Below are positions 1 through 17,986 of a DNA stretch of 64,000 bases, piece after piece. The position numbers and the translations under genes were made by a program. Source of the stretch: Thermoplasmatales archaeon SG8-52-3 (lineage in GTDB: Archaea; Thermoplasmatota; E2; DHVEG-1); the NCBI GenBank assembly GCA_001595915.1, contig LSSG01000053.1, positions 3,416 through 67,415 of the forward strand, written 5' to 3'. The notes under the pieces were generated by a model, which worked only from the letters and a program-made list of their open reading frames with translations, was not told where the DNA came from and made no database searches. Position 1 is the stretch's first letter, and each line of letters begins with the position of its first letter.

Positions 1-583
1 TATCATAAGTATTTTTGTTTAAGGCTGAAAATAACTTTTTTTTATCCTCTTTATAAATTTTGATAATATTTTCTTTAAATTTGGTATCGTTTCCATACAT
101 AGCCATTTGAAATTCGTATTTTCTTTTAGGATTATTTACGATTCTTCCATAACTTGGTATGCCATTTGTCCAAGGTTTTTGAAAAAATTGGAAAATATTT
201 GTTTCATTTCTATCTACTATATAATTAGCAGTTTTTACAAAAAGATCACCTCCGAACAAAGGTGCAAAAATATTATACCAAATCCATAAATCAAGAAACG
301 GAGGTAGTATATTACCTATTTTTGCCCACCATTTCTGTTTAGTGTTAATTCCTAAACCAGAAATTTGAGCTTGCTTAACCCACATTTCCATAATTTCATC
401 GTTAATTTTTCCAGTTAACATGCTTCCCCAAATTGGAGGAGTGACAATTACTTTATAATCAGATAAATCTAATTTAGAATGTTTTTTTTGCATTATATTT
501 TGGAGTTTCCATTTTTTAACTAAAGAAAATTCAAGGCCATCTATTCCAAATACAATTATTTTTGGATAATAAGATTTTTTCAT
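1..583 (-). CDS. Alkaline-phosphatase-superfamily (nucleotide pyrophosphatase/phosphodiesterase-like) protein, C-terminus cut by the window edge
   Basis: Reverse-strand ORF starting at ATG 583..581 (MKKSYYPKIIVFGIDGLEFSLV...). The IDGL motif is typical of the AlkP/NPP core. No sulfatase CxPxR motif. Runs off the window. Confidence 0.4.
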   Translation of the reverse strand, partial: MKKSYYPKIIVFGIDGLEFSLVKKWKLQNIMQKKHSKLDLSDYKVIVTPPIWGSMLTGKINDEIMEMWVKQAQISGLGINTKQKWWAKIGNILPPFLDLWIWYNIFAPLFGGDLFVKTANYIVDRNETNIFQFFQKPWTNGIPSYGRIVNNPKRKYEFQMAMYGNDTKFKENIIKIYKEDKKKLFSALNKNTYD

Positions 584-677
584 TTTTTTATTCCTTTTTT
601 AAAAAATAATCATTTAATTTTAACTTAAAAGTTTAATCATTAATTGAAAAAATTTGATTTCTTTTTTGATTAAAATG

Positions 678-1973
678 TTATTTTACAATTCTTTTAAAAT
701 TTATTTTAAACTTAAATTTAGGATATATATCAAATTTAATATCAATTTTTTTTCTAAAATAATGTGAATCAAAACTTGATAATAAACCCAATTTATTTTT
801 TGTTTTTTCAAAATTGATTTTTAAGGAATTATATCCAATAGGTTTTAACAATCTATGAGATTCAATTTTGGAAAATCCTTTAAGAATAATTTTCTTTTTA
901 CAATCATTATAATAACCAGATATTTTACAAGGTACTTCAGATATTAAAAAACCAAGTAGATTTTTTTCAATAGTTGCTTCAGTTATATCTTCAGAACTTT
1001 CAGAAAGATTTTTTATGTTCAAAAAAAGAGTTTCATTTTCTTTTTTTGCAATAATTTGAAGTTCAATTGGATAATAAAAATCATATTTCTTTAAATATTT
1101 CATTTTTTTGTATTTGAATTGTATATTACTAAATTCAGTATAATTTTTTCCATCCTTTGAAAAAATCAAAATTCCAGTCCCAATTCCATCCATAATCCAA
1201 AACATCATATTTCCAAAAAAAATGCTCCATTCATTATCTAAAACAGCCCAAATCCAATCATATCCTGGAGGTCTATTATTGGTGCTAAACGTTATTGAAT
1301 TAGGAATTTTTAAATCCTGATTACGTAACCAATTTAAAATTAGTTTAAGATAAGTAGAAATTGTTTTTTTTAAAGATACTTTAGAAGAAAAAATAGAAAT
1401 ATATGAAAAATTTCCCCAAATATGTTCAAAATATCCTTTCCCTTCTAAGGTAAACTTGTTATTATTTATTTTAATATATCCCAATATTTTATTTTTTGGA
1501 ATAAAACCATATTCAAAATATCCTAAATTCCATGGAAGTGATCCATTTGTTATTTTTTGAGCAACCCAGTAAGGTAATGAATTTGAATGGAATTTTAAAT
1601 TTAAGTTTATATTATTGTCTAAATCAAAAAAATACATTTTGTAATTAGGATAAGATCCAGTAATATACGATTTCTCATATTTAATATTAAAAAATTCTTT
1701 TTCTGTATCTAACTTATTTTTATCTTTCAATGAACTGTATTTATAAATTTTATTATTATCTAAATCAAAAATAGATATTGAATATGATGTCCATAATGTT
1801 TTATCCCTACCAATACCCTGAAAAATTGTTGATTTAAAACAAAAATTTTTATTGTTTTCAATTGTTTTAAAAAATCCTTCTGCACACCACCATTCTTTTG
1901 TACAAGGATAATATTCTTTTTCGAATTTTTTAGCCAAATTAAATTTCTTTTCTTTTAACATTGGCATAACCAC
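678..1973 (-). CDS. Hypothetical protein (431 aa), possibly CrtC/AttH-like lipocalin fold
   Basis: Long ORF with an N-terminal EWW(C) motif reminiscent of the EWWY motif of hydroxyneurosporene-synthase/AttH-like proteins. The assignment is weak. Confidence 0.3.
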   Translation of the reverse strand: MVMPMLKEKKFNLAKKFEKEYYPCTKEWWCAEGFFKTIENNKNFCFKSTIFQGIGRDKTLWTSYSISIFDLDNNKIYKYSSLKDKNKLDTEKEFFNIKYEKSYITGSYPNYKMYFFDLDNNINLNLKFHSNSLPYWVAQKITNGSLPWNLGYFEYGFIPKNKILGYIKINNNKFTLEGKGYFEHIWGNFSYISIFSSKVSLKKTISTYLKLILNWLRNQDLKIPNSITFSTNNRPPGYDWIWAVLDNEWSIFFGNMMFWIMDGIGTGILIFSKDGKNYTEFSNIQFKYKKMKYLKKYDFYYPIELQIIAKKENETLFLNIKNLSESSEDITEATIEKNLLGFLISEVPCKISGYYNDCKKKIILKGFSKIESHRLLKPIGYNSLKINFEKTKNKLGLLSSFDSHYFRKKIDIKFDIYPKFKFKINFKRIVK

Positions 1974-2042
1974 AGATTTTCAATTTGGACAGTTTTTCTA
2001 CTAATTTTAACTTTTAAATATTTTTTATAGATATGATAATCA

Positions 2043-3173
2043 CTAATATTCTGAAACATATTTTGCTATATTTACCCCATTAGTAATCCATGCTTTTTTC
2101 TCACAACAATATTTTAAGATTTTTTCATATAATTTAGTCCATTCTGAATCAAATAACCCTGCATAAGAAACTGGATAAGAAAAAGTCCAATTATGCCAAA
2201 GAATTGTTAAAACACCATTTAATTTTTCAATATTATCTATTAATTTTTTTAATAAAATCCAAGCTTCTTTTACACCAATTTTCATATATGAAAACATGGT
2301 AATATCTGCAACACAAACTGGAATTTCTAAAATATCAATTTTTTTATTTTGATTTAAATCATATGGAAAAAAAGGATGACACATTCCATTTCTGAAACCT
2401 ATCATGTCATAATATCCATAACTTGAATCATAAAAAAATCCTGCTTGATTTAATATTTCCCAAGTTCTTGGAATTTTAAATCTTAATATATGATTTCTAA
2501 CCCCAATAACTCTTTTTTTAGTAATTTTTTCTAACTTTTTTTTCTCTTTTTTTATTTTTTCTAAATCATCAAAACTATAAAATCCAGTATGGAGTCCAAT
2601 TTCACAATTATTGTCTATTATATCTAATATTTCATCCTGAATTTCATCTATGTGATATTTTTTACCAAAAATATCTTGCTGAGTTGCAAGAAAAAAGAAT
2701 GTTGAAATAGCATTGTATTTTTCTTCAAGATTGATAATTTTTTTAAAATTAATGTAAGGTTTTTCTTTTTTTAAATATGAAAAAATAAATTTTTTAGTAC
2801 CAAAATAATCCCTATGAAAGGGATAAGGAATAATTGAACGGAATAATTGTTTACCTGTAATATTTATGTCATCAACGTCATGGGATAAAAAAACTGCAAA
2901 TTTTTTTCCATCTTCATATTCAAAATTAAATCCTTTTTTAATTAAATATTCTGAAACAATTGGAATTAATACATTCTTTTGTTTTGTTAATTTATAAGAT
3001 AAAATATCATTTTTTATTGATTCACTTATCCTATATTCTTCTTTTTTTAAAAAAAGATTCCATATATCTTTGTCTTTTTTTAGTTCATTATGTATATAAT
3101 TCCAGTTTGGCTTTGAATTAGAATGTGAAGCCATCAAATTAGTAATATAACACATAATCAAATATTCTTTCAT
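2043..3173 (-). CDS. Polysaccharide deacetylase (CE4/NodB family)
   Basis: FLSHDVDD and LHTGFY motifs typical of the NodB homology domain. 376 aa. Confidence 0.6.
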   Translation of the reverse strand: MKEYLIMCYITNLMASHSNSKPNWNYIHNELKKDKDIWNLFLKKEEYRISESIKNDILSYKLTKQKNVLIPIVSEYLIKKGFNFEYEDGKKFAVFLSHDVDDINITGKQLFRSIIPYPFHRDYFGTKKFIFSYLKKEKPYINFKKIINLEEKYNAISTFFFLATQQDIFGKKYHIDEIQDEILDIIDNNCEIGLHTGFYSFDDLEKIKKEKKKLEKITKKRVIGVRNHILRFKIPRTWEILNQAGFFYDSSYGYYDMIGFRNGMCHPFFPYDLNQNKKIDILEIPVCVADITMFSYMKIGVKEAWILLKKLIDNIEKLNGVLTILWHNWTFSYPVSYAGLFDSEWTKLYEKILKYCCEKKAWITNGVNIAKYVSEY

Positions 3174-3259
3174 TTTTAATTTTTAAAAATCAAAAAATAT
3201 TGTTTCAATAAATCTTTAATAAAAGTATAAATAACATTATCTAATTTTAAAGACAAAAA

Positions 3260-4486
3260 ATGAAAAAGTATTCTATATTAATAAAAAGTGCTCACTGGAC
3301 ATGTTTACCAAATTTAATTTTTTGTTCAATGTTATATCAATATTTTTTAAAAAATGGTCATAGAATAACAAAAGAACCAACAAAAGCAGATTTTATTATA
3401 ATTAGTACCTGTGGAGTATTGACACAAATCGAAGATAAAACTATTGATCTATACAATAATTATAAAAATTTGAAACGAAAAGATGCTCAAATAATTATGT
3501 TTGGTTGCCTTTTAAAAACTAATAAAGAAAAAATAAAAAATTTAGATTTTTATCATATTGAATTCGAAGAGACTTATAAACTAGATTTATTGTTTTATTC
3601 AAAAATTAAGTTTGAAAAAATAAAACCAATTTGTGATGAAGAAACTAAGACTAAATTGCTTTATAATGAAAAAACCCATGGTTTTGTAAAAAGATATCCA
3701 TTTTTTTTAACTAAAATGTTTTTTCCATTTTCAAAAAAACTTAAGTTAAAATATAAAATAATAATTAAAGATCTTACTCATAAAGATAGAATTTTTGTTT
3801 TAATTAGTAGAGGTTGTATTAGTAATTGTAATTATTGTGTTATTAAAAAAGCCAAAGGACGATTAGTATCTAGAACTATTAAAGACATTTTAAATGACAT
3901 AGAATCAATATATGATCCAAAGAAAACACTTTTTTTAGTAGCCGATGACTGTGGTTGTTATGGATTTGATTTAAAAACAAATTTAATAGACTTAGTATAC
4001 AAAATAAATAAAAAATTTCCAAAAACAAAAATTGACTTAAATTATCTCAATCCAACAATTTTACAAAATGATGCTGATAAATATGTACAGTTATTCAAAG
4101 ATATTTCTTTTAGATATGTTATAGTACCTTTACAAAGTGGATCCAATAAAATAATTAAAAAAATGAATCGTAAATATGATGTTAAAAAAGTTTTAGCTTT
4201 TGCTGATAAAATTAAGAAAATATCTCCAGATACAATTCTATATGCACATTTTATTATAAACTATCCAGAAGAAAACATAATAGATTTTTTAAAAACTTTA
4301 ATTACATTATTTCATTTCGATGTTCCATTACCATTTATTTATACTCCAATGAAAGGAACAAATAGTTTTTCTACAATAAAAATAGTTTCAAAAATAAAAG
4401 GTAGATTAAAATGGTATGTTTTTATGAGCATTTCCAATATAGTTATTTTATTTAAAACAATTAAATATCAAAAATTAGTTGAATGA
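3260..4486 (+). CDS. Radical SAM enzyme with MiaB/MTTase-like N-terminal domain
   Basis: N-terminal TC...ADFIIISTCGV...GCL pattern (MTTase_N-like), then CxxxCxxC (GCISNCNYC). No obvious TRAM domain. Confidence 0.6.
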   Translation: MKKYSILIKSAHWTCLPNLIFCSMLYQYFLKNGHRITKEPTKADFIIISTCGVLTQIEDKTIDLYNNYKNLKRKDAQIIMFGCLLKTNKEKIKNLDFYHIEFEETYKLDLLFYSKIKFEKIKPICDEETKTKLLYNEKTHGFVKRYPFFLTKMFFPFSKKLKLKYKIIIKDLTHKDRIFVLISRGCISNCNYCVIKKAKGRLVSRTIKDILNDIESIYDPKKTLFLVADDCGCYGFDLKTNLIDLVYKINKKFPKTKIDLNYLNPTILQNDADKYVQLFKDISFRYVIVPLQSGSNKIIKKMNRKYDVKKVLAFADKIKKISPDTILYAHFIINYPEENIIDFLKTLITLFHFDVPLPFIYTPMKGTNSFSTIKIVSKIKGRLKWYVFMSISNIVILFKTIKYQKLVE

Positions 4487-4519
4487 CAATTAGTTAAAAA
4501 ATATAAAGTAGGTATTATC

Positions 4520-5110
4520 TTGCCGAATTTCCTAAATGATAGAGATTTAAAATTGAATATTTCAACATTAATAATATACAATAGTAAACCTTATTCTTTT
4601 TTTAAGAAAATTTCACCATGGTATTGGTTCATCCGCCCAATGACAAAATATTTACTAAATAATTATTCCAATAATAAACTAATTGGAGTTGAGATAGGAG
4701 TAGAATATGGTCTTAATGCAAAGACAATGCTAAAATTCCTTTCTATTGAGAAATTATTTTTGATTGATCCTTATAAAGATAAACTTGGAGATGAATGTTT
4801 TAAACAAACAAAAATTTTTTTAAGAAAATATAGTAATAAAATTATATTTATTAGAAAATCCTCTGAATCTGCAGTAAACGATATTCCAAATAATTTAGAT
4901 TTTGTTTATATTGATGGAAGCCATGAATATAAATTTGTAAAAAAGGATATTGAACTTTATTATGATAAAATAAAATCAGGTGGATTAATTGGAGGTCATG
5001 ATTTTTGGGCAGATCATATAGGAGTTTGTAAAGCAGTACTTGAATTTGCAAATGAAAATAAATTAAAAATTAATGGAAATTTAACAGATTGGTGGATTAT
5101 AAAAAAATAA
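4520..5110 (+). CDS. Class I SAM-dependent methyltransferase (TylF/CmcI, Methyltransf_24-like)
   Basis: GVEIGVEYG, DGSHEY and GGLIGGHD motifs as in macrocin-O-methyltransferase-like sugar O-methyltransferases. Confidence 0.55.
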   Translation: MPNFLNDRDLKLNISTLIIYNSKPYSFFKKISPWYWFIRPMTKYLLNNYSNNKLIGVEIGVEYGLNAKTMLKFLSIEKLFLIDPYKDKLGDECFKQTKIFLRKYSNKIIFIRKSSESAVNDIPNNLDFVYIDGSHEYKFVKKDIELYYDKIKSGGLIGGHDFWADHIGVCKAVLEFANENKLKINGNLTDWWIIKK

Positions 5111-5124
5111 TATAATGGCATATT

Positions 5125-6090
5125 ATGTTTGAACAAACATTTAGATTGTTAGATTTAGTAAAATTATATGGTTTTGCTACCATATATAAAAGACCATTAA
5201 GATATACTCATGAAATTACAAGAAGGTGTAATCTTTATTGTCCTAACTGTTATGTTTATAATTTTAACCCAGATTATAAAAATAAAACAAGATTAGAAAT
5301 ATTTGACGAAGTAAAAAAAAATGAGCTAACATTAGAAGACTATAAAAAAATTTTTCAAGAAGAAAAGAAAAAGGGTTGCAGATCAGTTTTTTTAATAGGT
5401 GGCGAACCGACTTTACGAATGGATATCATAAAAATTGCTTATGGATATTTTGGAAGAAATACATCTCTTATTACAAATGGTTTAATTAAAATTCCAACAA
5501 TTTTAAAGATTCCTTTTGCAGTTTCCATTGATGGTGGGAAAATAGTTCATGATGAAATTCGTGGAAATGGTACTTGGAATCGTATTTTTGAAAACTATTC
5601 AGATGATTATAGAGTGATGCTATCATGCTGTTTAAGAAAAAATACTGCAAATCAAATTCAAAAAGTAATTGATGAATGGATTGATACAGATGTTTTTGGA
5701 GTTTCATTTTTTTTCTTAACACCTTCAAAAAAAAATTCTTCTATTACAGTTATTGGAAACGAAAGAAATTATGCAAAAAAAGAATTACATAGGGTTGTTG
5801 ATGAATATCCGAATTTTGTTAGAATGACGCATCAACTAGTTGACCTTTTAGGTGAATTGAATAAAGGTCAATGTCCTGTTTTTAATTATTCATTATGGTA
5901 TGATTATAAAGGTGATTTAATTGATTATTGCCTACTTGGAAAAGATGCTGATTGTAATCTTTGTGGTTGTATTTCACCTCTTTATTTAAAAATGTTTTCA
6001 AGTTGGTGGAAATTATTAAATAAAAAATCCCTAGATATATTTACTCTACCTCGCGATATAAAACAATGTAGAAAGAGAGGACAAAAATAA
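5125..6090 (+). CDS. Radical SAM/SPASM-domain protein
   Basis: CNLYCPNC (CxxxCxxC) near the N-terminus. C-terminal Cys-rich auxiliary-cluster region (CPVFNYSLWYD...CNLCGC). Confidence 0.7.
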   Translation: MFEQTFRLLDLVKLYGFATIYKRPLRYTHEITRRCNLYCPNCYVYNFNPDYKNKTRLEIFDEVKKNELTLEDYKKIFQEEKKKGCRSVFLIGGEPTLRMDIIKIAYGYFGRNTSLITNGLIKIPTILKIPFAVSIDGGKIVHDEIRGNGTWNRIFENYSDDYRVMLSCCLRKNTANQIQKVIDEWIDTDVFGVSFFFLTPSKKNSSITVIGNERNYAKKELHRVVDEYPNFVRMTHQLVDLLGELNKGQCPVFNYSLWYDYKGDLIDYCLLGKDADCNLCGCISPLYLKMFSSWWKLLNKKSLDIFTLPRDIKQCRKRGQK

Positions 6091-6103
6091 TAGGAAATAG
6101 TTT

Positions 6104-7447
6104 ATGAAAATATTATTAATTTGGCCGAGAAAATCATCATTGCTTTTTGATAATTCAAATATGGTAAAAATTTTTTCTATGTTTCTTTCAAGAATGAGTT
6201 TCCGTCGAAAACCAATAGTTTATTCAATTTTATCTGCTCTTACTCCTAATCATCATACTATTGATATTGCTGAAGGAGAAATAAATGATATAAATTTTAA
6301 CAAGGTTTATGACTTAGTTGGAATAACAAGTGTTACATCAAATGCTATTTTGTCTTATGAGATTGCAGATAAATTTAGAAAGCATAAAATACCTGTAGTT
6401 ATTGGAGGCCTTCATCCTTCTGTTTATCCTGAGGAAGCAAAAAAACATGCAGATTCTGTTGTAATAGGCGATGCTGAAGAAATTTGGCCAAAATTATTAA
6501 AAGATTTAGAAAACAATAAATTAAAACCATTCTATTATCAAAATCGTGTTGTTAATCCTAAACTAATTCCTCCATCTAAAAATGTTTATAAAAAAGGAAC
6601 TGGAATAGGCATTCAAGCAACAAGAGGATGTCCACAGAAATGTGAATTTTGCTCTATTCCAAATACTAAATTTGGAAATATTTATACAAAAAGACCAATT
6701 GAAAATGTAATAGAAGATATCAATAAATGTGAAAGAAAAATCTTTATTTTTCAAGATAACTCTTTAACTGTTGATACAAATTATACAAAAAAACTTTTTA
6801 GCAAGCTTATTGGAATAAATAAGAAATTCCTAGCATATGGAAATATTGACATTTTAGGAAAAGATGAAGAACTTTTAAAATTAGCAAATGAAGCTGGTTG
6901 TGTAGGATGGTTGATTGGTTTTGAGTCTGTATCTCAAGCATCAATAGATAGTATTGGAAAAAAAACAAATATTGTTAAAAATTATTTATCTGCTGTAAAA
7001 AAAATACATGATTTTGGTATGATTATTGAGGCTTCATTTGTATTTGGATTTGATCATGATAAAAAAGATATTTTTAATAAAACAGATGAATTTATTAGAT
7101 TGAGTGAAATAGGAATTCCTTTTGGTTTAATACTTACACCATATCCTGGAACAATACTATATAATCGATTGGAAAGAGAAAAAAGGATATTAACAAAAGA
7201 TTGGGATAAATATGATGGACTAAATGCAGTATTTAAACCTAAACATATGAGTTCTGAAACGCTTTTAAATAATACTGAGGCTCTAAATTTAAAATGGCAT
7301 AAAGGTTTGAATAGTATTGAAAGAATTATAAAAAATATGAGTTTTGGGTTTTATCCATTTACTGAAACATTAGTTATAGAAATTTATTGGAAATTAATTT
7401 ATCAAAGAATTGGAAAATTAAGTAATTTATATAGTAAAATACTCTAA
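6104..7447 (+). CDS. B12-binding (class B) radical SAM enzyme
   Basis: N-terminal cobalamin-binding Rossmann-like region (VGITSVTS...VVIGGLHPS), followed by TRGCPQKCEFC. Confidence 0.75.
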   Translation: MKILLIWPRKSSLLFDNSNMVKIFSMFLSRMSFRRKPIVYSILSALTPNHHTIDIAEGEINDINFNKVYDLVGITSVTSNAILSYEIADKFRKHKIPVVIGGLHPSVYPEEAKKHADSVVIGDAEEIWPKLLKDLENNKLKPFYYQNRVVNPKLIPPSKNVYKKGTGIGIQATRGCPQKCEFCSIPNTKFGNIYTKRPIENVIEDINKCERKIFIFQDNSLTVDTNYTKKLFSKLIGINKKFLAYGNIDILGKDEELLKLANEAGCVGWLIGFESVSQASIDSIGKKTNIVKNYLSAVKKIHDFGMIIEASFVFGFDHDKKDIFNKTDEFIRLSEIGIPFGLILTPYPGTILYNRLEREKRILTKDWDKYDGLNAVFKPKHMSSETLLNNTEALNLKWHKGLNSIERIIKNMSFGFYPFTETLVIEIYWKLIYQRIGKLSNLYSKIL

Positions 7448-7449
7448 AG

Positions 7450-8454
7450 ATGTCAAATACTGATAAAAAATCTGAAATAATTCAAAGCTTTAATAATTAC
7501 ATTTTTTCAAAAAAAACATTTGATATTAAAGATACAGTTTTAGTTGCTGGTTCCCCAAGGTCAGGAACAACATGGATTACTGAATTATTAGCATATTTAC
7601 CAAAATATACCTATATTTTTGAACCTTTAAACCCGGTATGGAATCCTGAAATATTTAAAATTGGATTTTCTTCAAGAATGTATATTTCAAAAAATACTAA
7701 ATGGAATGAAGGAAAAAATTATCTTCTAGATGTTTTTACTGGAAAAACATCAAATTTACCAATAAAGGGAAGTATATCGAAAAGCATTATACCTGGTTTT
7801 TCATTAAATAAATTCTTTCATTTTTTATTAGGAAATAAGCTTATTATAAAATCTACAAATATGAATAGAATGCTTTCATGGATTAACAATAATTTTCAAT
7901 TACGCGATATCGTTTTAATTATTAGACATCCATGTGCATGTATTGCTTCTCAGATGAAGTCAGGTCTTTATGGATATCGAACTAATAAATCTCCTTATAT
8001 AGATATTATACCTACAAAAGAAATAATTTTAGATGAAATTCAAAAAATTTCTGAATTAAATGATTCGTTAATTAAAAAGATTAAAAATATCGATAAAAAA
8101 GAAGAGATATTTGCTACTGCATGGTGTCTTGATAATTATTTTTTAATTTCTCAAAAAAATTTTTACCCATGGAAATTAATTTTTTATGAAAAATTAATAA
8201 AAAATTCTGATGAAGAAATTATTAATCTTTTTAAAAAAATTGGGGAGAAAAAAGTACCTAAAAATGTGTTTAAAAATTTAAAAAAGCCAAGTTCAGTAAC
8301 AATGAAAGAAGATAAGAAATATATTAATCATCCAAATAAACAATTATCAAAATGGAAAGATTATCTTTCAGAGAAACAAATAAAGAGAATATTAAATGTA
8401 TTATCTATCTTTGAAATCGATTTATATAATGAAAATCTTGAACCTAATTATTAA
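7450..8454 (+). CDS. Sulfotransferase (PAPS-dependent, Sulfotransfer_3-like)
   Basis: 5'-PSB loop AGSPRSGTTW near the N-terminus. About 330 aa. Starts 3 nt after the upstream gene. Confidence 0.65.
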   Translation: MSNTDKKSEIIQSFNNYIFSKKTFDIKDTVLVAGSPRSGTTWITELLAYLPKYTYIFEPLNPVWNPEIFKIGFSSRMYISKNTKWNEGKNYLLDVFTGKTSNLPIKGSISKSIIPGFSLNKFFHFLLGNKLIIKSTNMNRMLSWINNNFQLRDIVLIIRHPCACIASQMKSGLYGYRTNKSPYIDIIPTKEIILDEIQKISELNDSLIKKIKNIDKKEEIFATAWCLDNYFLISQKNFYPWKLIFYEKLIKNSDEEIINLFKKIGEKKVPKNVFKNLKKPSSVTMKEDKKYINHPNKQLSKWKDYLSEKQIKRILNVLSIFEIDLYNENLEPNY

Positions 8455-8466
8455 ATAAAATATTAA

Positions 8467-9675
8467 CTATTTTTTTCTAATGTCCCCAACTTCAAAACCA
8501 CTATAAAATGTTGTTCTATCATTTTTTAATAGTTCAATTACCATATTCTTATCTTGATGAAATTCTAAAATATCTTTTGGTATGTATCTATCTTTTCTTG
8601 TTATTGAATAAAAAATTCTACTTTTATTTTTTCCGACTCTTATAATTTCTATTAAATTTTTTTTAAAATTTTTATCATCAATCCAATCAAAAATATTTGA
8701 AAGAAAAAATTTTGAAATTGAATTATCTTTAATTTCTTTTAAAGTATCAAATACTGATGCAGTTTTTATTTCTATTTTTTTAATTCTTTCTTTTAAAATC
8801 TTATAATTTTCTTGCTTTAAATAAGGGTAGTAATGGTTTTCATTTAATAAATATCCTAACAAAATTAATGATAAAAAAGAATTGTATTTTATTGGTATTT
8901 TTGTGTATATATCCTCAATTTTTTTTATATGATTTTTTGTAAAATTAACATTTTTAATATATCCTAAATAATCAGATTTTTTACGACCATGATAAAATTC
9001 AATTAAAAATCTAAAACATAATGATATCCTAATAAAATACTTATTATAGCCAAAAAAATGACCTAGTTGCCATGGCATACCATAGATATGTTTAAAAAAA
9101 TAGTCAGTTTGTTCCTTAATTGTTTCGCATAAAAAAAAATTTTTAATTAACTTTTCACCTTTTAAGAATCTTAAAAATAAACCAAAATTTTTAACATTTT
9201 GTTCTCCAACATTTAATAATCCTTTTTTAATTACAAAAGAATTTTTATCCCAAAAATTTCTAGCGTTTTTATTTAAATCTTTTTTTATAGAATTATAAAT
9301 TGATAAATTATTTTTTAAAGATTTTAAACCCATTAGTTTTAAAAAATCTAAATATTCAAGATTTTTTATTGCAGTTATTTTTAATTCTAATAAATAATTT
9401 TGAAAAGGATTAAAATCAACAGATATTATCTTTTTTGGATTATGTAAAAGTAAATTTAGAATGTTACAACCATTAGAAGTAATAGAAAATACTACATCAT
9501 TACTATTTATTTTGAGAGCTTTTTCAATTTGTAAAATATCTTCCCAACAATTGTAAAAATCTATCTTATTCATTATTTTTTGATCTGAAAAACTAAGTTT
9601 AGTGATATTTTTATCTTCCATTCCAATTTTAGAATCAATTTTTAATATAATATTTTTAAGCTTTGAAATATTCAA
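8467..9675 (-). CDS. DUF3419/BtaA-like SAM-dependent 3-amino-3-carboxypropyl-transferase-like protein
   Basis: FYNCWEDILQ...VFSITSNGCNILNLL...ISVDFNPFQ resembles the conserved N-terminal region of the DUF3419 (BtaA) family. About 400 aa. Confidence 0.45.
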   Translation of the reverse strand: MNISKLKNIILKIDSKIGMEDKNITKLSFSDQKIMNKIDFYNCWEDILQIEKALKINSNDVVFSITSNGCNILNLLLHNPKKIISVDFNPFQNYLLELKITAIKNLEYLDFLKLMGLKSLKNNLSIYNSIKKDLNKNARNFWDKNSFVIKKGLLNVGEQNVKNFGLFLRFLKGEKLIKNFFLCETIKEQTDYFFKHIYGMPWQLGHFFGYNKYFIRISLCFRFLIEFYHGRKKSDYLGYIKNVNFTKNHIKKIEDIYTKIPIKYNSFLSLILLGYLLNENHYYPYLKQENYKILKERIKKIEIKTASVFDTLKEIKDNSISKFFLSNIFDWIDDKNFKKNLIEIIRVGKNKSRIFYSITRKDRYIPKDILEFHQDKNMVIELLKNDRTTFYSGFEVGDIRKK

Positions 9676-9688
9676 AAATTGTAAAATA

Positions 9689-10840
9689 ATGAAAATTACC
9701 CTGATTGGTACGTTACCACCTATAAAAGCGCTAAGCCCCTATTGTTACCATTTAGCTGATGCATTATCAAAAAAAGTAGATTTAGATTTTTTTAATTTTA
9801 AAAATAGTCTACCAGAATCTTTATATCATGGAGGAATGACAGAGAAAAAAAATGAAAAAATTCAAACTCCTAACTTAAAAATTAAAACTATTATTAATTG
9901 GTGGAATCCATTTTCATGGATTAAAGTTGGAATTGTAGTAAAAGGGGATATTGTTCACGTACAACATTGGTCTTTGTATTCAGGATTAATTTATTGTTTT
10001 ATTTTACCAATTACTAAATTGCGTGGTAAAAAAAATGTATTAACAATTCATAATATTACTCCACATACAGATGATTTTTTAACAAAATTTTTTGATAAAA
10101 TGATTAATAAAATTATTCTCCCGTATACAAATCATATTATTGTTCATAACAAGAGAAATAGAAATAAATTTTTTGAACTTTATAGTATAGATAAAAAAAT
10201 TGTGACAATAATATCTCATGGCTCTATAATGCCTTATAATAAAATAAAAAATATTTCAAAAACTGATGCTAGAAAAAAATTAAATATATCACCTGAGAAA
10301 AAAGTGATATTATTTTTTGGTTATATATGGGACTATAAGGGTTTAGATATTTTACTTTCATCATCAAAAATCATTAAAGAAAAAATTAAGAATTATTTAC
10401 TCTTAATTGCTGGTCAACCCTTAAAAGACTGGAAAAAATATGATAAAATTATTTTGAAAGATAATTTAAATGAGATAATTCTGAAAAAATTAGAATATAT
10501 TTCTGATTCAGAAATTGAATATTATTTTTCAAGTAGTGATCTTGTTGTATTGCCATATAAGAAACATCCGTTTGATACTCATGGTGGAGTAGGAGCTTTA
10601 GCTTTATCATTTAACAAACCAATTTTAGTAACAGATGTTGGTGGATTACCTGAATATGTAAAAAACAATAAAGTTGTTGTTGAGCCTAATAATGAAAAAG
10701 AATTAGCTGAAAAAATAATATTTGTATTAGAAAATAAAGCTTTGTTAAAAAAACTTTCAAATGATTCAAAACTGTTATCAAAAGAATTGAGCTGGGATAA
10801 AATCGCTGATCAAACAATAGAAATTTACACTAAAACATAA
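9689..10840 (+). CDS. Glycosyltransferase family 4
   Basis: C-terminal GGVGALALSFNKPILVTDVGGLPEYV (GT4 E-x7-E region). Start set at ATG 9689 (MKITLIGTLPP), not the track's upstream start that overlaps the neighbour. Confidence 0.8.
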   Translation: MKITLIGTLPPIKALSPYCYHLADALSKKVDLDFFNFKNSLPESLYHGGMTEKKNEKIQTPNLKIKTIINWWNPFSWIKVGIVVKGDIVHVQHWSLYSGLIYCFILPITKLRGKKNVLTIHNITPHTDDFLTKFFDKMINKIILPYTNHIIVHNKRNRNKFFELYSIDKKIVTIISHGSIMPYNKIKNISKTDARKKLNISPEKKVILFFGYIWDYKGLDILLSSSKIIKEKIKNYLLLIAGQPLKDWKKYDKIILKDNLNEIILKKLEYISDSEIEYYFSSSDLVVLPYKKHPFDTHGGVGALALSFNKPILVTDVGGLPEYVKNNKVVVEPNNEKELAEKIIFVLENKALLKKLSNDSKLLSKELSWDKIADQTIEIYTKT

Positions 10841-10847
10841 CTAAGGA

Positions 10848-11822
10848 TTATTTTCGTCTTTTTGATTCAATTAAATTTTTTAAATAAGTTAAATTTTGTT
10901 TGAAAAAATAATTTGGTAGTCTATTAAAATATGACATTCCAAAATAGCAATCAATAGTGCAATGATTACAAAAATTATATTTTCCAGCCTTTTCAAAAAG
11001 TTGGTACCATTCTTTTGAATTATAGAGAGTATGTAATTTTCCATCGATTTTGATTTTTTTATTATAATTATGAGTACATGGAATAATTAAAGTATCATCT
11101 GGTCCAATATCTATTGTAGATAATCCTGCTTGACATTTAGATTTTGATGGATTATTTCCACCTCTTTTATGAAAATCAAGTTGAGGTAGACTCATTCTTA
11201 TGTATGGATTCCAAAAATTTTTCTTAATTTTTTTTATATTGTCTTTATTTAACGATTTATTGCCAAAATATGAAAAACAAGGGTGAATATAGGTTGTTAT
11301 TTTATTAGAATCAGCAAAATTTACAATTTCTTGTAAATTTTTTATGTTTTTATCTGTTACAGTATATAATAAACATATTTCTTGTTTATTATTTATTGCA
11401 ATATTAATGCCTTCTATAAGTTTATCATATCCATCGATACCTCTAATTTTTTTATATTCTTCTTTAGAGGTTGTATCAAATGAAAAATATGTTCTACTAG
11501 GAAGGTTTTTTATTTCTTTAAATCTATCCTTATAAAAATAACCATTTGTTGAAAGTTTTACAAAAAAGCCTAGTTGTTTTGCAGAGGCAAGAATTTGTGG
11601 TAAATCTTTGTTTAATAATGGTTCACCACCAGTAAAATCAATAAACTTTACTCCTATTTTTTTTAAATCAACTAAATTTTTTTTTACATCTGTAAATTTT
11701 GCATCAAAAATATTCTTGTATGAATTATTTCTCCAAAAATTACAAAATTCACATTTTGAATTACATCTATAAGTGACCCAATAATTGCAAAAAAAAGGTT
11801 TTTTATTTATTAAAAAGGTCAT
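10848..11822 (-). CDS. Radical SAM/SPASM(twitch)-domain protein
   Basis: YRCNSKCEFC motif and FTGGEPLL. C-terminal extra Cys cluster (CQAG...IPC...CNHCTIDC). Confidence 0.7.
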   Translation of the reverse strand: MTFLINKKPFFCNYWVTYRCNSKCEFCNFWRNNSYKNIFDAKFTDVKKNLVDLKKIGVKFIDFTGGEPLLNKDLPQILASAKQLGFFVKLSTNGYFYKDRFKEIKNLPSRTYFSFDTTSKEEYKKIRGIDGYDKLIEGINIAINNKQEICLLYTVTDKNIKNLQEIVNFADSNKITTYIHPCFSYFGNKSLNKDNIKKIKKNFWNPYIRMSLPQLDFHKRGGNNPSKSKCQAGLSTIDIGPDDTLIIPCTHNYNKKIKIDGKLHTLYNSKEWYQLFEKAGKYNFCNHCTIDCYFGMSYFNRLPNYFFKQNLTYLKNLIESKRRK

Positions 11823-11993
11823 TTTTTATCGTATTTTATAAGTTATAAATCTTTTTAAATTTGCTGTTTAAAAAATTGTTATATAACAAATTAGTATCAT
11901 TTCTTTTAAAAAACAACAAAAATCTTTATACATAATTAATTATCATAAATTTAAAAAAAATTCATAACAAAATAAAATTTTGGGAAAAATAAT

Positions 11994-13061
11994 ATGAAGA
12001 TTCCATGGTCAATTCCAAATATTCAAGATAAAGAAATAGAATCAATAAATAGAGTGCTAGATTCTGGATGGCTTTCAATGGGTAAAGAAGTAAAAAAATT
12101 TGAAGAAAAAGTTGCTTCTTATCTAAAAATAAAATATTCAATTTCAGTTAATAATGGTACATCTGCTTTAGATCTTGCTTTAAAGTGTTTAGATCTCAAT
12201 ACAAAAGATGAGATCATAATCCCTGCCTTAACCTATATTGCGACTGGAAATGTTGTTTTATATAACAATTGTATACCTGTATTTGTTGATATTGATAATA
12301 CTTTGAATATAGATACCACCCTAATTGAAGAAAAAATAACAAAAAAAACAAAGGCAATAATTAATATTGATCTAGGTGGAAATCCAACAAATTATAAAAA
12401 TTTATTAAAAATATCTGATGAAAATTCTTTACCTTTAATTGTTGATGGTGCACAATCTTTTGGTTCAGAATATCAAAATAAAAAATGTTGCACACATGGT
12501 CTAATAAATACAACCAGTTTTCATGCAGCAAAAATAATAACTACAGTTGAAGGAGGAATGATTTTTACTAACGATAAAAAAATAAATGATAAAGCAAATA
12601 TTTTAAGAAATCAAGGTGAAACATCAAAATATATACACAGCTATCTTGGTAACAATTATAGAATGACTGATTTAGCAGCTTCAATTGGGAATTCTCAGAT
12701 GGATAGGTTTGAAACTACTCTAGAAGAACGAATAAATAAAGCAAAATATTATAAACAAAATCTAAAAAATGTAGATTATCCTGAAGAATTACAAAACACT
12801 AAAAATTGTCATTTTTTCTTTTTAATTTTAGTTAAAAATAGAAATAAATTAAACAAATGCCTAAATAAAAATGGAATAGAAACACGAATAACTTATCCTT
12901 TACCGATAAATGAACAAACTATATTTAAAAAATATAGTAAACAAGATTATATTTCAGCAAAAAAATTTTCAAAAAAAGTAATATCATTACCTATTCATCA
13001 TAAACTAACAATAGACGAACAAGATTATATTATTAAGAAAATTAACAATTTTGATAGGTGA
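11994..13061 (+). CDS. DegT/DnrJ/EryC1/StrS-family PLP-dependent sugar aminotransferase
   Basis: NGTSALDLAL and SFHAAKIITTVEGG motifs. Confidence 0.85.
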   Translation: MKIPWSIPNIQDKEIESINRVLDSGWLSMGKEVKKFEEKVASYLKIKYSISVNNGTSALDLALKCLDLNTKDEIIIPALTYIATGNVVLYNNCIPVFVDIDNTLNIDTTLIEEKITKKTKAIINIDLGGNPTNYKNLLKISDENSLPLIVDGAQSFGSEYQNKKCCTHGLINTTSFHAAKIITTVEGGMIFTNDKKINDKANILRNQGETSKYIHSYLGNNYRMTDLAASIGNSQMDRFETTLEERINKAKYYKQNLKNVDYPEELQNTKNCHFFFLILVKNRNKLNKCLNKNGIETRITYPLPINEQTIFKKYSKQDYISAKKFSKKVISLPIHHKLTIDEQDYIIKKINNFDR

Positions 13062-13066
13062 TATAA

Positions 13067-13999
13067 ATTAATATATTAGTTACTGGAGGTGCTGGATATA
13101 TTGGTAATATATTAGTACCTGAATTATTAAAAAAGAAATATTATGTTAGAGTATTTGATAATTTAACGTATGGTATCGATGGTATTCTTCCTCATTTTAG
13201 TAATAATAATTTTGATTTTACCAAGGGAGATATAACAAACATTGTTGACATTAAAAAATCACTTGATGATATCGATTTTGTAATACATTTAGCAGCTATT
13301 GTTGGCTATCCAGCATGCAGAGCTAGACCCGATCTTGCACATAAGGTTAATTTTATTGGAACAAAAAATCTATTAAGTTATTGTAAAGTCCCATTTTTTT
13401 ATCCATCTACTGGCAGTAGTTATGGTAAAGTTGAAAAAATATGTACTGAAGAAACTCAATTAAAACCATTAACCGAATATGGTGAAACTAAAACTAATGG
13501 TGAAGAGATTGTAAAACAATATTCAGATTATGTTATATACCGTTTTTCAACAGGTTTTGGATTATCACCAAGACTTAGACTTGATCTTCTTGTTAATAAT
13601 TTCTTAATAAAAGCAATGCGCGAAAGGGAATTAATTGTGTATGAAAAAAATTATTGGAGATCTTTTATTCACGTCAAAGATATTTCTAGAAGTATTATTT
13701 TTGCTATTGAAAACTTTGAAAAAATGAATGGAGAAATATACAATGTAGGATCTGAAAAATTATGTCTAACAAAGGAAGATGTAGCCTTAAAAATTAAAAA
13801 TTATGTTGATTTTCATTTAAAATTTGCTGAATTTGGAAAAGACCCAGATAAAAGAAATTATAAGGTAAGTTTCAAAAAGATAAAATCATTGGGTTTTAAT
13901 ATAAAATTTGATTTAGATTATGGTATTAAAGAAATGATTAAGGCATTTCAATTTATTGAGTTAAAAGATGATTATTTTAATTATAAGGTTTTTAAATGA
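13067..13999 (+). CDS. NAD-dependent epimerase/dehydratase (extended SDR); apparent non-canonical AUU start
   Basis: The open frame encodes (I)NILVTGGAGYIGN...YGETK, with the Rossmann motif and YxxxK. There is no ATG/GTG/TTG until codon ~184. AGGTGA at 13056..13061 sits 5 nt upstream of ATT 13067. Confidence 0.7.
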   Translation: MNILVTGGAGYIGNILVPELLKKKYYVRVFDNLTYGIDGILPHFSNNNFDFTKGDITNIVDIKKSLDDIDFVIHLAAIVGYPACRARPDLAHKVNFIGTKNLLSYCKVPFFYPSTGSSYGKVEKICTEETQLKPLTEYGETKTNGEEIVKQYSDYVIYRFSTGFGLSPRLRLDLLVNNFLIKAMRERELIVYEKNYWRSFIHVKDISRSIIFAIENFEKMNGEIYNVGSEKLCLTKEDVALKIKNYVDFHLKFAEFGKDPDKRNYKVSFKKIKSLGFNIKFDLDYGIKEMIKAFQFIELKDDYFNYKVFK

Positions 14000-14448
14000 A
14001 TAATAATTTGTTAATTTTTAGACCTTTTAATAAGAAAGACATAAATGAAGTTCTTGATCTATTGATAAATCTCAGTATAACTAATAAAGAATTCTTTCAT
14101 CCCTATAAATTTGATAAAAAAACCCTTTTAAAAAATTATAATTCTGATGATTTTTATTTTGTTATGGTAATTAATAATGTTATTATTGGATACTCTTTTT
14201 TAAGATTCTTTGGATATAAAATTCCAAGTTTTGGTTGCTGTATTAAAAATGGATATGAGAATAAAGGTTATGGTGAAAAAATCACAAAGTTAACCATTAA
14301 AAAGGCAAAGGAACTTGGATATAAAAAAGTAATTTTAAAAACATATAAAAAAAATATATTTGCAAAAAAAATCTATGATAAAGTTGGTTTTAAAGTTATT
14401 GGAGAAACAGATGATAAAAGACAGTATAAAATGGAACTGATTTTGTAA
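13996..14448 (+). CDS. GNAT-family N-acetyltransferase
   Basis: GYENKGYGEKI...GFKVIG acetyl-CoA binding region. Its start overlaps the epimerase stop (ATGA). Confidence 0.7.
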   Translation: MNNNLLIFRPFNKKDINEVLDLLINLSITNKEFFHPYKFDKKTLLKNYNSDDFYFVMVINNVIIGYSFLRFFGYKIPSFGCCIKNGYENKGYGEKITKLTIKKAKELGYKKVILKTYKKNIFAKKIYDKVGFKVIGETDDKRQYKMELIL

Positions 14449-16763: not shown

Positions 16764-16870
16764 TAAGAATTTTAAGTTAAAAAACCTGTCAAAAAATTCT
16801 ATAAAAATTAATGGTAAAAAGATGTTTGTAGTTTATAATTCTAGCAGTTTTTCTAAGATTTGAAAAAAAT

Positions 16871-17875
16871 TTATAAAAATATTTTTCTTGGTTTTACAAT
16901 AGTGCACTCAGCACATACTGGTATTTTATCAAACCTTTTAGAGTGAATTAATTTTCTTATATTTTGATATTTTTCACTTCTCCAGATTTCTTTTATTGAA
17001 GAATCTTTTACATTTCCAAGAATTATTCTTTTAGAATAATCATTACAGCATAATATTACATCACCATTTGCTAAAATATTAAAAATTGAGAAAAGATGAT
17101 GACATCTATGAACTAAATCTTTTCCAAAATTATATAATAGATTTTGGACAAAATTTGGATAATAATTATTCATTGCTAACTCATTAAAATTTGCTAAATC
17201 TCCACTTCTACTATTAATTCTTGTGAAATCAATTGGAATGCCTCTATTTTTCCAATAATTTTCAAAATCATAAATTTCTTTTAAATTTTTATTTTGAATT
17301 ACATAACCAACAGATATCCTTCCAGAATAATTAGAGTTTAATACACATTCAATATTTTCTAAAAGTTTCTTAAAATTTAGTTGTTTTCTAATTTCTTCAA
17401 AAGTTTCTCTTGTATATGCATCAATACTAAAATGAATCTCATCAACTTTTGAATTTTCAAGTTCTTTGATTTTGTTCTTGTTAAAAAGAGTTCCATTTGT
17501 GACAAGTGCTGTTGATAAATTATTATTTGTTAATTTTTTTGCAAGTTCTAATTTTTTAAAAATATCTTTATCAAGAAGAGGTTCATTTTGAAGATATAAC
17601 CATAACCAAATAAAATTACTATTTTCATCAGCAATTTCCTTTAAAATCTTGTTGTATAACTTATCAGACATTTTTTTTGTTTTTGAGTATTTCTGATAGC
17701 TCCTAGGACACATAATACATTTTCCATTACATGCATCAATTGTTTGAATTTGAAAAACTGATGGAAATTGATACACTTTCTTTGTAATATTATATTGAAA
17801 AATCCTACCTAATAATATAAAGAGATGCATATATTTTTTCAAGTATATATTAAATTTATAGTCTAATTGACTCAT
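16871..17875 (-). CDS. Radical SAM/SPASM-domain protein
   Basis: CNGKCIMC motif. C-terminal SPASM-like CCNDYS...GNVKDSSIKEIW...CAEC. Confidence 0.7.
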   Translation of the reverse strand: MSQLDYKFNIYLKKYMHLFILLGRIFQYNITKKVYQFPSVFQIQTIDACNGKCIMCPRSYQKYSKTKKMSDKLYNKILKEIADENSNFIWLWLYLQNEPLLDKDIFKKLELAKKLTNNNLSTALVTNGTLFNKNKIKELENSKVDEIHFSIDAYTRETFEEIRKQLNFKKLLENIECVLNSNYSGRISVGYVIQNKNLKEIYDFENYWKNRGIPIDFTRINSRSGDLANFNELAMNNYYPNFVQNLLYNFGKDLVHRCHHLFSIFNILANGDVILCCNDYSKRIILGNVKDSSIKEIWRSEKYQNIRKLIHSKRFDKIPVCAECTIVKPRKIFL

Positions 17876-17986
17876 AATTTCCGTAATAAAATAATTAGTT
17901 TGTTATAGACTCAATAAATTATTTATTTATTAATTAATTCATTTATTGAAGTAATATGCAATAGTTCTAAAGATAAAAGCAGATTA

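Follow-up and report, generated by a model that had tools for sequence, protein, structure and literature searches.

A conserved archaeal gene block of radical SAM enzymes, a PAPS-type sulfotransferase and a BtaA-like protein as a candidate tailoring cluster for isoprenoid lipids

Thermoplasmatales archaeon SG8-52-3 is a metagenome-assembled genome (MAG) of the Thermoprofundales (MBG-D) from the sulfate zone of an estuarine sediment (PMC6461988). We analyzed a stretch of 64,000 nucleotides of its contig LSSG01000053.1 (positions 3,416 to 67,415; hereafter the window, whose coordinates are used throughout), with a GC content of approximately 20–36%. At 3260–8454 it carries five plus-strand genes that encode a MiaB-like radical S-adenosylmethionine (rSAM) protein, a methyltransferase, a second rSAM protein, a cobalamin-binding (B12) rSAM protein and a sulfotransferase. 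Listing of the open reading frames (ORFs) exactly reproduced the coordinates of an original prediction for this DNA, as well as its intergenic distances (33, 14, 13 and 2 nt). The five genes, which had been taken as a unit, are real, but they are the plus-strand arm of a larger conserved block of 14 genes (approximately 14.4 kb, window 1–14448) that occupies both strands, and in which the B12-rSAM and methyltransferase genes are variable members. The block is an uncharacterised archaeal tailoring gene cluster assembled from known enzyme superfamilies, and we found no published description of it. Whether it tailors an isoprenoid ether lipid (archaeol or a glycerol dialkyl glycerol tetraether, GDGT) or a glycolipid, including its sugar head group, is in our judgement an even call; this is the likeliest of the readings considered, and the one that we develop below.

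The block recurs in about 25 loci or contigs from Thermoplasmatota, 'Euryarchaeota' UBA33 and Promethearchaeota. These were collected as contigs with close sulfotransferase orthologs and through a species-level genome scan and a metagenome scan, the latter anchored on the second rSAM gene of the run (rSAM-321), and were compared to the window proteins by blastp. The gene order begins with a Phosphodiest-family gene, followed by genes for a 431-aa protein and a deacetylase-like protein, one to five copies of the MiaB-like gene, an optional Methyltransf_24 gene, rSAM-321 and a B12-rSAM gene; it continues with the sulfotransferase gene, a convergent DUF3419 gene, and genes for a GT4 glycosyltransferase, a further rSAM protein (rSAM-324), a DegT aminotransferase, a short-chain dehydrogenase/reductase (SDR) and a GNAT acetyltransferase. 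The B12-rSAM genes are of two types and vary in position. Block proteins are 50–77% identical across Thermoplasmatota, UBA33 and Promethearchaeota, and have no transmembrane segments. The exact arrangement of the window was seen again in loci L092 and L093 and in the P0002 contig.

Within the block, the orthologs of rSAM-321 lead to the sulfotransferase gene, either directly or past one B12-rSAM gene, in 17 of the 21 loci that are informative. The convergent DUF3419 gene comes immediately after the sulfotransferase gene in all 15 loci that extend far enough. Both genes are jointly missing in L101, L104, L106 and L108; in such loci rSAM-321 runs to GT4 (L104, L106) or to the deacetylase-like gene and rSAM-324 (L108). 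Since they are absent together from four loci, the sulfotransferase and DUF3419 genes behave as a module. A second locus, L091 (the contig with SG8-52-3 protein AYK22_03870), comes from the same or a near-identical genome, and contains three B12-rSAM genes, one of which encodes a protein of 471 aa, as well as three MiaB-like genes without TRAM in tandem and a gene for a UbiE-type methyltransferase; the system appears to be split over two loci. The block copy in L088 lacks the genes from GT4 through GNAT, with a DNA primase gene after DUF3419, and an IS240-family transposase gene (2376–3008 of that locus) lies inside its array of MiaB-like paralogues.

Gaps of 35 nt or less separate 15 of the 32 same-strand neighbouring gene pairs in the window, and tight packing by itself is ordinary for the SG8-52-3 genome. 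Four consecutive gaps of this size would arise by chance with a frequency of about 5% (0.47 to the fourth power, independence being assumed). The five-gene run is above chance because its order is conserved in other contigs (identical in L092, L093 and the P0002 contig), and not because of its spacing. Co-transcription, which had been called almost certain, is compatible with the tight co-directional packing and with the order kept elsewhere, and we word it no more strongly than that. No clear Shine-Dalgarno motifs were found at the internal junctions of the run, and a scan for sigma-70 promoters and terminators, a model that is not applicable to archaea, returned 95 sites versus 88.6 ± 6.5 in shuffled sequences. 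An A/T-rich, TATA-like string upstream of position 3260 was not counted, such strings being ubiquitous at 22–26% GC.

Searches of Pfam and NCBIfam upheld three of the predicted domain assignments, with UPF0004 and Radical_SAM found in the MiaB-N protein, B12-binding and Radical_SAM in the B12-rSAM protein, and Sulfotransfer_1/3 in the sulfotransferase. The first gene of the run (3260–4486, plus strand) encodes a TRAM-less MiaB-like protein of 408 aa with two Fe-S cluster sites (UPF0004 49.9 bits, Radical_SAM 59.6 bits). It resembles MiaB, RimO and MtaB in its UPF0004 N-terminal domain with three cysteines (C15, C51 and C83, which align with the N-terminal domain of RimO), in the CX3CX2C motif of the rSAM core (Cys186/190/193), and in aligning to the structures of RimO (4JC0) and MiaB; the cysteines of both sites are 100% conserved in 14 orthologs and paralogues. 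It differs from them in ending approximately 35 aa past the rSAM core, with no Pfam match to TRAM, an RNA/protein substrate-binding module that is also absent from all 120 homologs listed. Its score against TIGR00089 (185 bits) is under the cut-off of 251 bits, and the RimO, MtaB and MiaB equivalog models all score far under theirs. The genomic setting differs as well, since MiaB and RimO are encoded by single housekeeping genes, whereas those of the block are one to five tandem paralogues in a biosynthetic context; batteries of up to 4–5 MiaB-like and three B12-rSAM paralogues are found in related loci.

As it has no TRAM domain and scores under the curated cut-off, the MiaB-like protein is best kept apart from the methylthiotransferases of tRNA and ribosomal proteins. 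Chemically, it probably does work like a methylthiotransferase. The family counts 607 matches, with UPF0004 and Radical_SAM as the only domains in all 120 of those listed; many of its members are automatically named tRNA MiaB or RimO, names under which the family is currently mis-annotated in public databases. Tailoring of a quinone (methionaquinone or thermoplasmaquinone) by the MiaB-like and B12-rSAM proteins was considered and is no more than speculation, as no literature link between methionaquinone and a methylthiotransferase was found and no menaquinone genes were seen in the loci.

The second gene (4520–5110, plus strand; TTG start) encodes a class I SAM methyltransferase of 196 aa whose sole match at E ≤ 0.01 is Methyltransf_24 (PF13578, 53.1 bits); with no NCBIfam match and no PDB sequence match, its earlier description as TylF-like was not borne out. 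The orthologous stop-to-stop ORFs of L006 and L088 align over residues 1–196 with 63% identity, in agreement with the TTG start. A shorter protein of approximately 150 aa, which would leave a gap of 153 nt, was rejected, given that the orthologous ORFs share the first 40 residues of the longer form. Orthologs were found in a subset of loci (L006, L088, L092, L093, L094, L098, L100, L104, L107 and the P0002 contig).

The third gene, rSAM-321 (5125–6090, plus strand; 321 aa, Radical_SAM 45.9 bits), is the signature and anchor of the block and encodes the most conserved protein of the region, with orthologs that are 57–77% identical. As to its assignment as an rSAM/SPASM protein, the Pfam SPASM model is unmatched and NCBIfam matches to SPASM maturases are weak, but the protein does carry a SPASM/twitch-like C-terminal cysteine array. 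In addition to the CX3CX2C motif, nine further cysteines are invariant, including C250-x13-G-x5-C269...C277-x2-C280-x-C282...C315. The family is narrow; against 1.84e9 representative sequences, rSAM-321 retrieved one ortholog cluster (E=6e-143), and the next relative was 38% identical (E=2e-33).

The fourth gene (6104–7447, plus strand) encodes a class B, cobalamin-binding rSAM protein of 447 aa (B12rSAM-447; B12-binding PF02310 36.4 bits, cut-off 32.1; Radical_SAM 47.4 bits), in which C176, C180 and C183 are invariant and whose position and copy number differ between loci. Its best matches, all weak and below cut-off, are BchE (a cyclase), HpnJ, HpnR (a methylase) and AprD4 (a dehydratase). 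C-methylation, the reaction originally proposed for it, is one possibility among others, as the related class B enzyme Ted is a lipid desaturase (10.1101/2025.10.20.683597). The other rSAM protein of the block, rSAM-324 (10848–11822, minus strand), is PTO1314-like, with Radical_SAM at 82.7 bits, TIGR03961 at 121.8 bits (cut-off 306) and an invariant C-terminal cysteine array. Its orthologs are 66–75% identical, and its best PDB match is the lipid enzyme GDGT-MAS (7TOL, E=1e-13).

The product of the sulfotransferase gene (7450–8454, plus strand; 334 aa, Sulfotransfer_1 24.0 bits, cut-off 22) is identical (100%) to AYK22_00055 of SG8-52-3. The protein is of the type that uses 3'-phosphoadenosine-5'-phosphosulfate (PAPS). 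One hallmark of such sulfotransferases is a 5'-phosphosulfate-binding (PSB) loop in which a Lys or Arg is conserved (PMC11625862); another is the strand-turn-helix that binds the 3'-phosphate (PB), in which an Arg and a Ser are conserved. Here, the PSB loop reads GSPRSGTTW (G34-S-P-R37-S-G39-T-T-W42) and the PB motif RHPCxxxxS (R159-H-P-C-x4-S167). These PAPS-binding sites, whose degeneration was the counter-evidence to look for, are intact: R37, G39, R159 and S167, together with E58, H160, P161 and C162, show no variation across all 85 relatives, archaeal and bacterial, with E58 and H160 as candidate catalytic bases. The AlphaFold model (pLDDT 84.6) points to the same assignment, as the top 50 Foldseek matches in the PDB are all PAPS sulfotransferases (probability 1.00, template modeling (TM) score 0.35–0.48, 10–16% identity). 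A profile of the family likewise matched only sulfotransferases in the PDB (36 of 36), with an alignment to CurM-ST that spans the PSB loop through the PB motif.

A rough neighbour-joining tree groups the window sulfotransferase with archaeal sequences only, in a clade of 12 members, and all archaeal sequences but one (14 of 15) fall together; the placement that the original prediction had left to be checked is thus archaeal, with no recent bacterial import. The sole sequence labelled bacterial in the archaeal clade comes from L011, a 1.5-kb MAG contig binned as Desulfobacteraceae, likely through mis-binning rather than transfer. The protein shares an RxG-type PSB loop (R37-S-G), the PB Arg and Ser and the sulfotransferase fold with NodH and Stf0 (Sulfotransfer_3; PMC11625862), but belongs to a distinct archaeal and bacterial family with an invariant RHPC motif and Glu58. 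That PAPS-type sulfotransferases are uncommon in archaea, as had been remarked, is a fair statement; the experimentally supported archaeal glycan sulfotransferases that we found, Agl30 and Agl31 of Halobacterium salinarum (PMC11980604), are sulfatase-fold enzymes. They are archaeal, are encoded in a glycosylation cluster and add sulfate to a glycoconjugate, and are in this respect comparable; their alkaline-phosphatase/sulfatase fold is nevertheless non-homologous to the P-loop, PAPS-type protein of the window.

Regarding the supply of PAPS, the steps from sulfate to adenosine 5'-phosphosulfate (APS) and from APS to PAPS were reported for most of eight Thermoprofundales MAGs, SG8-52-3 being among the eight, with CysH and CysJI absent (Zhou et al. 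2019; PMC6461988); a lack of PAPS biosynthesis, which would have made a sulfotransferase doubtful, is thus not what was found in this group. With PAPS formed but no CysH/CysJI, sulfation would be a plausible sink for it. No APS-kinase P-loop motif was found in the window or in the fetched loci.

The neighbour of the sulfotransferase gene on the opposite strand (8467–9675, minus strand) encodes a DUF3419/BtaA-like protein, a probable SAM 3-amino-3-carboxypropyl transferase (PF11899 201.6 bits, cut-off 28.2; profile positions 12–380 of 385). The only characterised DUF3419 proteins that we know of are BtaA, acting on diacylglycerol, onto which they move the aminocarboxypropyl group of SAM. The literature that we found on DUF3419 concerns only eukaryotes or cyanobacteria, and a PDB sequence search gave a single, insignificant match (E=0.044). 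In the window, no gene was recognised as btaB; related loci contain genes for UbiE-type methyltransferases.

On the other side of the run, the minus strand encodes the 431-aa protein (678–1973), which has the AttH/CrtC fold of hydratase-like proteins. A PDB sequence search gave no match; a Foldseek search with its AlphaFold model (pLDDT 89) retrieved AttH (2ICH, E=2e-15, TM 0.72), kievitone hydratase (7A0Q, E=4e-13) and, more distantly, Diels-Alderases and 25-phosphosteroid lyase. Orthologs in the block are 55–61% identical, and three of them show sub-threshold Pfam matches to CrtC/Svf1 lipocalins.

The folds of the sulfotransferase and the AttH-like protein bear on one alternative, a variant that could apply within other readings and to which we give very little credence. 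In this case sulfation would be an activation step: the sulfate would be a leaving group absent from the end product, possibly eliminated by the AttH-fold protein acting as a lyase or displaced by an aminocarboxypropyl group or a thiol. The closest structural and profile matches to the sulfotransferase include retinol dehydratase, CurM-ST and an olefin-synthase sulfotransferase, in which sulfate is added to trigger elimination, and the entry title of 25-phosphosteroid lyase names phosphate and a desmost-1,4-diene-3-one product; we take this enzyme to remove phosphate, by elimination, from a tertiary alcohol of the isoprenoid type. The constant pairing of the sulfotransferase with DUF3419, including their joint absence, also fits. 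The fold matches of the sulfotransferase are however distant, with the TM scores given above, and ordinary decorating sulfotransferases are equally among them; moreover, the sulfotransferase and AttH-like genes are not adjacent, and there is no CurM-like thioesterase or decarboxylase context.

Two further genes complete the minus-strand arm upstream of the run. A gene of the Phosphodiest family (alkaline-phosphatase superfamily) continues past the window edge, and its first 194 codons were read by six-frame translation at 1–583; the partial protein is 70% identical over 193 aa to an L086 protein (PF01663, 43.4 bits), and the gene has the same position in L086, L087 and the P0002 contig. A polysaccharide-deacetylase-like protein of 376 aa (2043–3173) scores 98 bits against the NCBIfam model for the VimE deacetylase (cut-off 440) and 19 bits against Polysacc_deac_1 (cut-off 23.1), and is present in all full-length block copies at 55–71% identity.

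Sugar-related genes make up most of the distal part of the block. The GT4 glycosyltransferase (Glycos_transf_1 87.9 bits; orthologs 63–71% identical) is encoded at 9686–10840 on the plus strand; its true start is ATG 9686 and not GTG 9602, ortholog homology beginning at residues 28–30. For DUF3419, in which it begins at residues 12–35, the start is probably ATG 9621. Whereas the mechanical ORF starts, GTG 9602 and TTG 9675, would make the two genes overlap head-to-head by 74 nt, the homology-based starts leave a divergent spacer of about 64 nt. The DegT/PseC/LegC-like protein (11994–13061, plus strand; PF01041 357.5 bits) resembles nucleotide-sugar aminotransferases, with PseC and LegC-family scores of 262.8 and 259.5 bits, both below cut-off. 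The GNAT N-acetyltransferase gene (13996–14448, plus strand; Acetyltransf_1 39 bits) has orthologs of 50–69% identity at the same position.

Between these two genes lies that of an SDR epimerase/4,6-dehydratase-like protein (13066–13999, plus strand), with an intact body but no canonical start. The 311-codon body is 75–89% identical to its orthologs, of which that of L001 matches the GalE and dTDP-glucose dehydratase models. Read from 13057, codon 3 is TAA (13063–13065), where the L086 ortholog has AAA, and no ATG, GTG or TTG precedes the GGAGYIG motif. The start could reflect a nonsense mutation with an ATT/ATA restart, a very recent inactivation or an error in the MAG consensus. A truncated fragment (a 127-aa ORF) was rejected, since the frame is uninterrupted from 13066 on and the damage is confined to the start.

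With PseC/LegC-like DegT, SDR, GNAT, GT4 and polysaccharide-deacetylase-like proteins, the block holds classic nucleotide-sugar and glycan genes. It could thus build and decorate a protein-linked (N- or O-glycan, S-layer) or cell-surface polysaccharide sugar, without any chemistry on lipid tails, an alternative that deserves attention and that we nevertheless rate as fairly unlikely. The rSAM and B12-rSAM enzymes would then C-methylate, deoxygenate or epimerise sugars, and the sulfotransferase and methyltransferase would cap sugar hydroxyls. In line with this, AprD4, the best solved relative of B12rSAM-447, acts on an aminoglycoside sugar; rSAM-324 is also like the nucleotide-acting rSAM proteins viperin, BlsE and MoaA; Halobacterium and Thermoplasma have sulfated N-glycans (PMC11980604; PMC11625862); and a Wzx-type flippase gene and a GT2 gene lie near the distant sulfotransferase relative of L004. 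However, no flippase, oligosaccharyltransferase (AglB), polymerase or dolichol-phosphate GT2 gene is present in the conserved block across the approximately 25 loci. A glycan product would also leave unexplained the AttH-fold and BtaA-like proteins, whose characterised relatives known to us act on isoprenoid or lipid substrates, as well as the batteries of MiaB-like and B12-rSAM paralogues.

The same sugar genes could serve a soluble metabolite or cofactor, be it an aminoglycoside- or nucleoside-like product or a thiol resembling bacillithiol or mycothiol that is made with the GT4, deacetylase and GNAT enzymes and receives sulfur through the MiaB-like enzymes. The combination of GT4, deacetylase and GNAT recalls the logic of MshA, MshB and MshD, and the GT4 protein matches MshA and BshA weakly; the AprD4-like match, the high rSAM density, which is typical of natural-product clusters, and the absence of transmembrane segments from all block proteins point in the same direction. 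We regard such a product as improbable, because the MshA and BshA scores are all far under the cut-offs, because genes for transport, regulation or resistance are not conserved along with the block, and because conservation as wide as that described above is more in keeping with a structural component of the cell than with a secondary metabolite of sporadic occurrence.

The original prediction named no substrate, whereas the genomic context points to a lipid or glycoconjugate, and we return here to isoprenoid ether lipids and glycolipids. Such a role is supported by the AttH fold, the BtaA-like gene and its co-occurrence with a phosphodiesterase-family gene and GT4, the match of rSAM-324 to GDGT-MAS, the prominence of rSAM and B12-rSAM enzymes in known archaeal lipid tailoring and the lack of a flippase, oligosaccharyltransferase or polymerase, and additionally by the surroundings of related genes in L089 and L004. 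Characterised members of the AttH family hydrate prenyl or isoprenoid double bonds; one of them, Hgs, acts on GDGTs to make hydroxy-GDGTs, and its gene overlaps that of the B12-rSAM desaturase Ted (10.1101/2025.10.20.683597, 2025). In L089, a B12-rSAM gene of the window type (41% identical, within a range of 40–44% for this type of relative) overlaps an AttH-like gene (46% identical) by 4 nt, and the pair adjoins two UbiA genes together with mevalonate genes for AcnX, UbiD and a GHMP kinase; L090 is similar. In L004, a sulfotransferase gene (45% identical) lies between two GT1 genes and adjoins two B12-rSAM genes, a UbiA gene and NAS-like genes. The accessory glycosyltransferases of related loci are macrolide/GT1-like, a type that is associated with lipophilic acceptors.

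L004, L089 and L090, as Thermoplasmatota-like contigs, also share a separate recurrent cluster of UbiA, NAS-like (aminocarboxypropyl-transferase-type), CapK/AMP-binding and B12-rSAM genes. It contains two UbiA genes in L089 and L090 and one in L004, and SDR and AttH-like genes are found in L089 and L090 as well; in L089 it borders on the AcnX/UbiD/GHMP-kinase mevalonate genes. This cluster is probably another uncharacterised isoprenoid-lipid pathway.

The computations establish the gene content and order of the block with their conservation, the domain identities, the intact cofactor-binding sites, the AttH fold of the 431-aa protein and the archaeal clade of the sulfotransferase; what we infer comprises all of its reactions as well as its substrate. 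If a lipid is the acceptor, the SDR, the PseC/LegC-like aminotransferase and the GNAT would yield the nucleotide of an N-acetylated amino-deoxy-hexose. The GT4 enzyme, along with a GT1/macrolide-type glycosyltransferase in relatives, would put this sugar on a lipid hydroxyl, and the deacetylase-like enzyme would free the amine. The sulfotransferase would then O-sulfate a hydroxyl of the sugar or of the lipid using PAPS, the BtaA-like DUF3419 protein would move the aminocarboxypropyl group of SAM onto a hydroxyl, and the Methyltransf_24 enzyme would methylate (O-methylation). Together, sulfation, aminocarboxypropyl transfer and methylation would generate phosphorus-free, charged head groups. 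On the chains, the B12-rSAM enzyme may methylate or desaturate unactivated carbons, by analogy with Gmm and Ted, and the AttH-like protein may, in the manner of Hgs, add water to the double bond so formed and give a tertiary alcohol. One or more of the two-cluster, TRAM-less MiaB-like enzymes could attach a methylthio group, or sulfur, to an unactivated carbon, and rSAM-321 and rSAM-324 could carry out further radical C-H chemistry.

Several points speak against a lipid substrate. Core lipid synthesis enzymes (DGGGP synthase, Tes, Grs) are not encoded in the window's block, the association with UbiA and mevalonate genes being seen only in relatives at 40–46% identity and not in the block itself, and sets of DegT, SDR, GNAT, GT4 and deacetylase genes are just as characteristic of pathways to glycans on proteins or the cell surface. 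The link to AprD4 noted above favours a sugar substrate. The window's AttH-like and B12-rSAM genes lie about 4 kb apart on opposite strands, and the AttH-like family is unlikely to be closely orthologous to Hgs. Furthermore, in the published survey Hgs homologs were nearly confined to groups other than Thermoplasmatota and Asgard archaea, and B12rSAM-447 falls short of the filter of at least 500 aa that was used there for Ted homologs (10.1101/2025.10.20.683597). For SG8-52-3 itself, sat and cysC are presumed from the report on most Thermoprofundales MAGs. Finally, we know of no lipid with a sulfate ester, a homoserine ether or a methylthio group from this uncultured lineage.

A more specific proposal, which we consider unlikely but worth stating, is that the block makes a new class of archaeal membrane lipid, namely a phosphorus-free ether lipid or glycolipid with a sulfate ester and/or an ether-linked homoserine (betaine-lipid-type) and with hydroxylated, methylated and methylthiolated chains. 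If so, the TRAM-less MiaB-like enzymes would be the first lipid-acting methylthiotransferases or sulfur-inserting rSAM enzymes, as opposed to those acting on tRNA or a ribosomal protein, and the sulfotransferase would be the first of the PAPS type with a defined role in archaea. With a lipid substrate in general, sediments would be expected to contain new archaeal lipid biomarkers bearing sulfate, amino or thiol groups, and such a substrate would explain why PAPS synthesis is kept without sulfite reduction in these archaea; a glycan substrate would make the block the first PAPS-type glycan sulfation pathway in archaea. Archaeal lipid tailoring is so far known mainly from rSAM and B12-rSAM enzymes (Tes, Grs, Gms, Gmm and Ted), plus the AttH-like Hgs, that were discovered singly, and we found no mention of MiaB-like enzymes or sulfotransferases in the literature on GDGT modification that we consulted. 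The block thus provides a conserved candidate gene set for the lipids of a very abundant uncultured archaeal group, with the AttH-like protein, two B12-rSAM types, a narrow signature rSAM, the BtaA-like enzyme, the PAPS sulfotransferase and the expanded TRAM-less MiaB-like family as candidates.

The remainder of the window is archaeal in content, with genes for Hef, archaeal Pus10, LonB and A-type ATPase subunits. Just downstream of the block, the gene at 15051–16763 encodes a LanC-like protein that stands alone (570 aa, PF05147 141 bits), beside an opposite-strand gene for an rSAM/SPASM protein (334 aa, 16871–17875; the pair spans 15051–17875). That these two genes belong to the unit, which would then make a product of the ribosomally synthesised and post-translationally modified peptide type, was rejected, since neither recurs with the block in any locus. 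ARAGORN identified a tRNA-Pro (GGG) at 17986–18060 on the minus strand, yet a scan of the whole window at the Rfam gathering threshold returned zero matches, including for the tRNA family. A 1063-aa ORF at 52440–55631 (plus strand) has no Pfam match at E ≤ 0.001.

Two known systems invite comparison with the block. The first is the Ted-Hgs pair, which likewise couples a class B rSAM gene genomically to that of an AttH-fold protein in archaea; both families are members of the same conserved block here, and the L089 genes overlap in the manner of ted and hgs. The systems differ in that nearly all Hgs homologs in the report on that pair are from Methanobacteriota and Bathyarchaeota, that Ted homologs were searched for at 500 aa or more, versus 447 aa for the B12-rSAM of the window, and that the sulfotransferase, BtaA-like, glycosyltransferase, MiaB-like and aminosugar genes of the block are not described at the Ted-Hgs locus. 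Given the published Hgs distribution and the Ted length filter, close orthology is unlikely, and the likeness is one of architecture.

The second comparison is to the phosphorus-sparing lipid remodelling modules of bacteria, in which btaA, or the glycosyltransferase gene agt, lies beside the phospholipase gene plcP (PMC4796936). The block differs from these plcP-btaA/btaB/agt modules in that its phosphoesterase belongs to the PF01663 family and is not PlcP, with no BtaB seen in the window; in its presumed lipid, an ether isoprenoid versus diacylglycerol; and in its additional complement of four or more rSAM enzymes and a sulfotransferase. The two are nevertheless alike in bringing together a phosphoesterase-type gene, a glycolipid-type glycosyltransferase gene and a BtaA-family gene, which in the block are the Phosphodiest-family, GT4 and BtaA-like genes, and in both cases phosphorus-free polar lipids would be the result.

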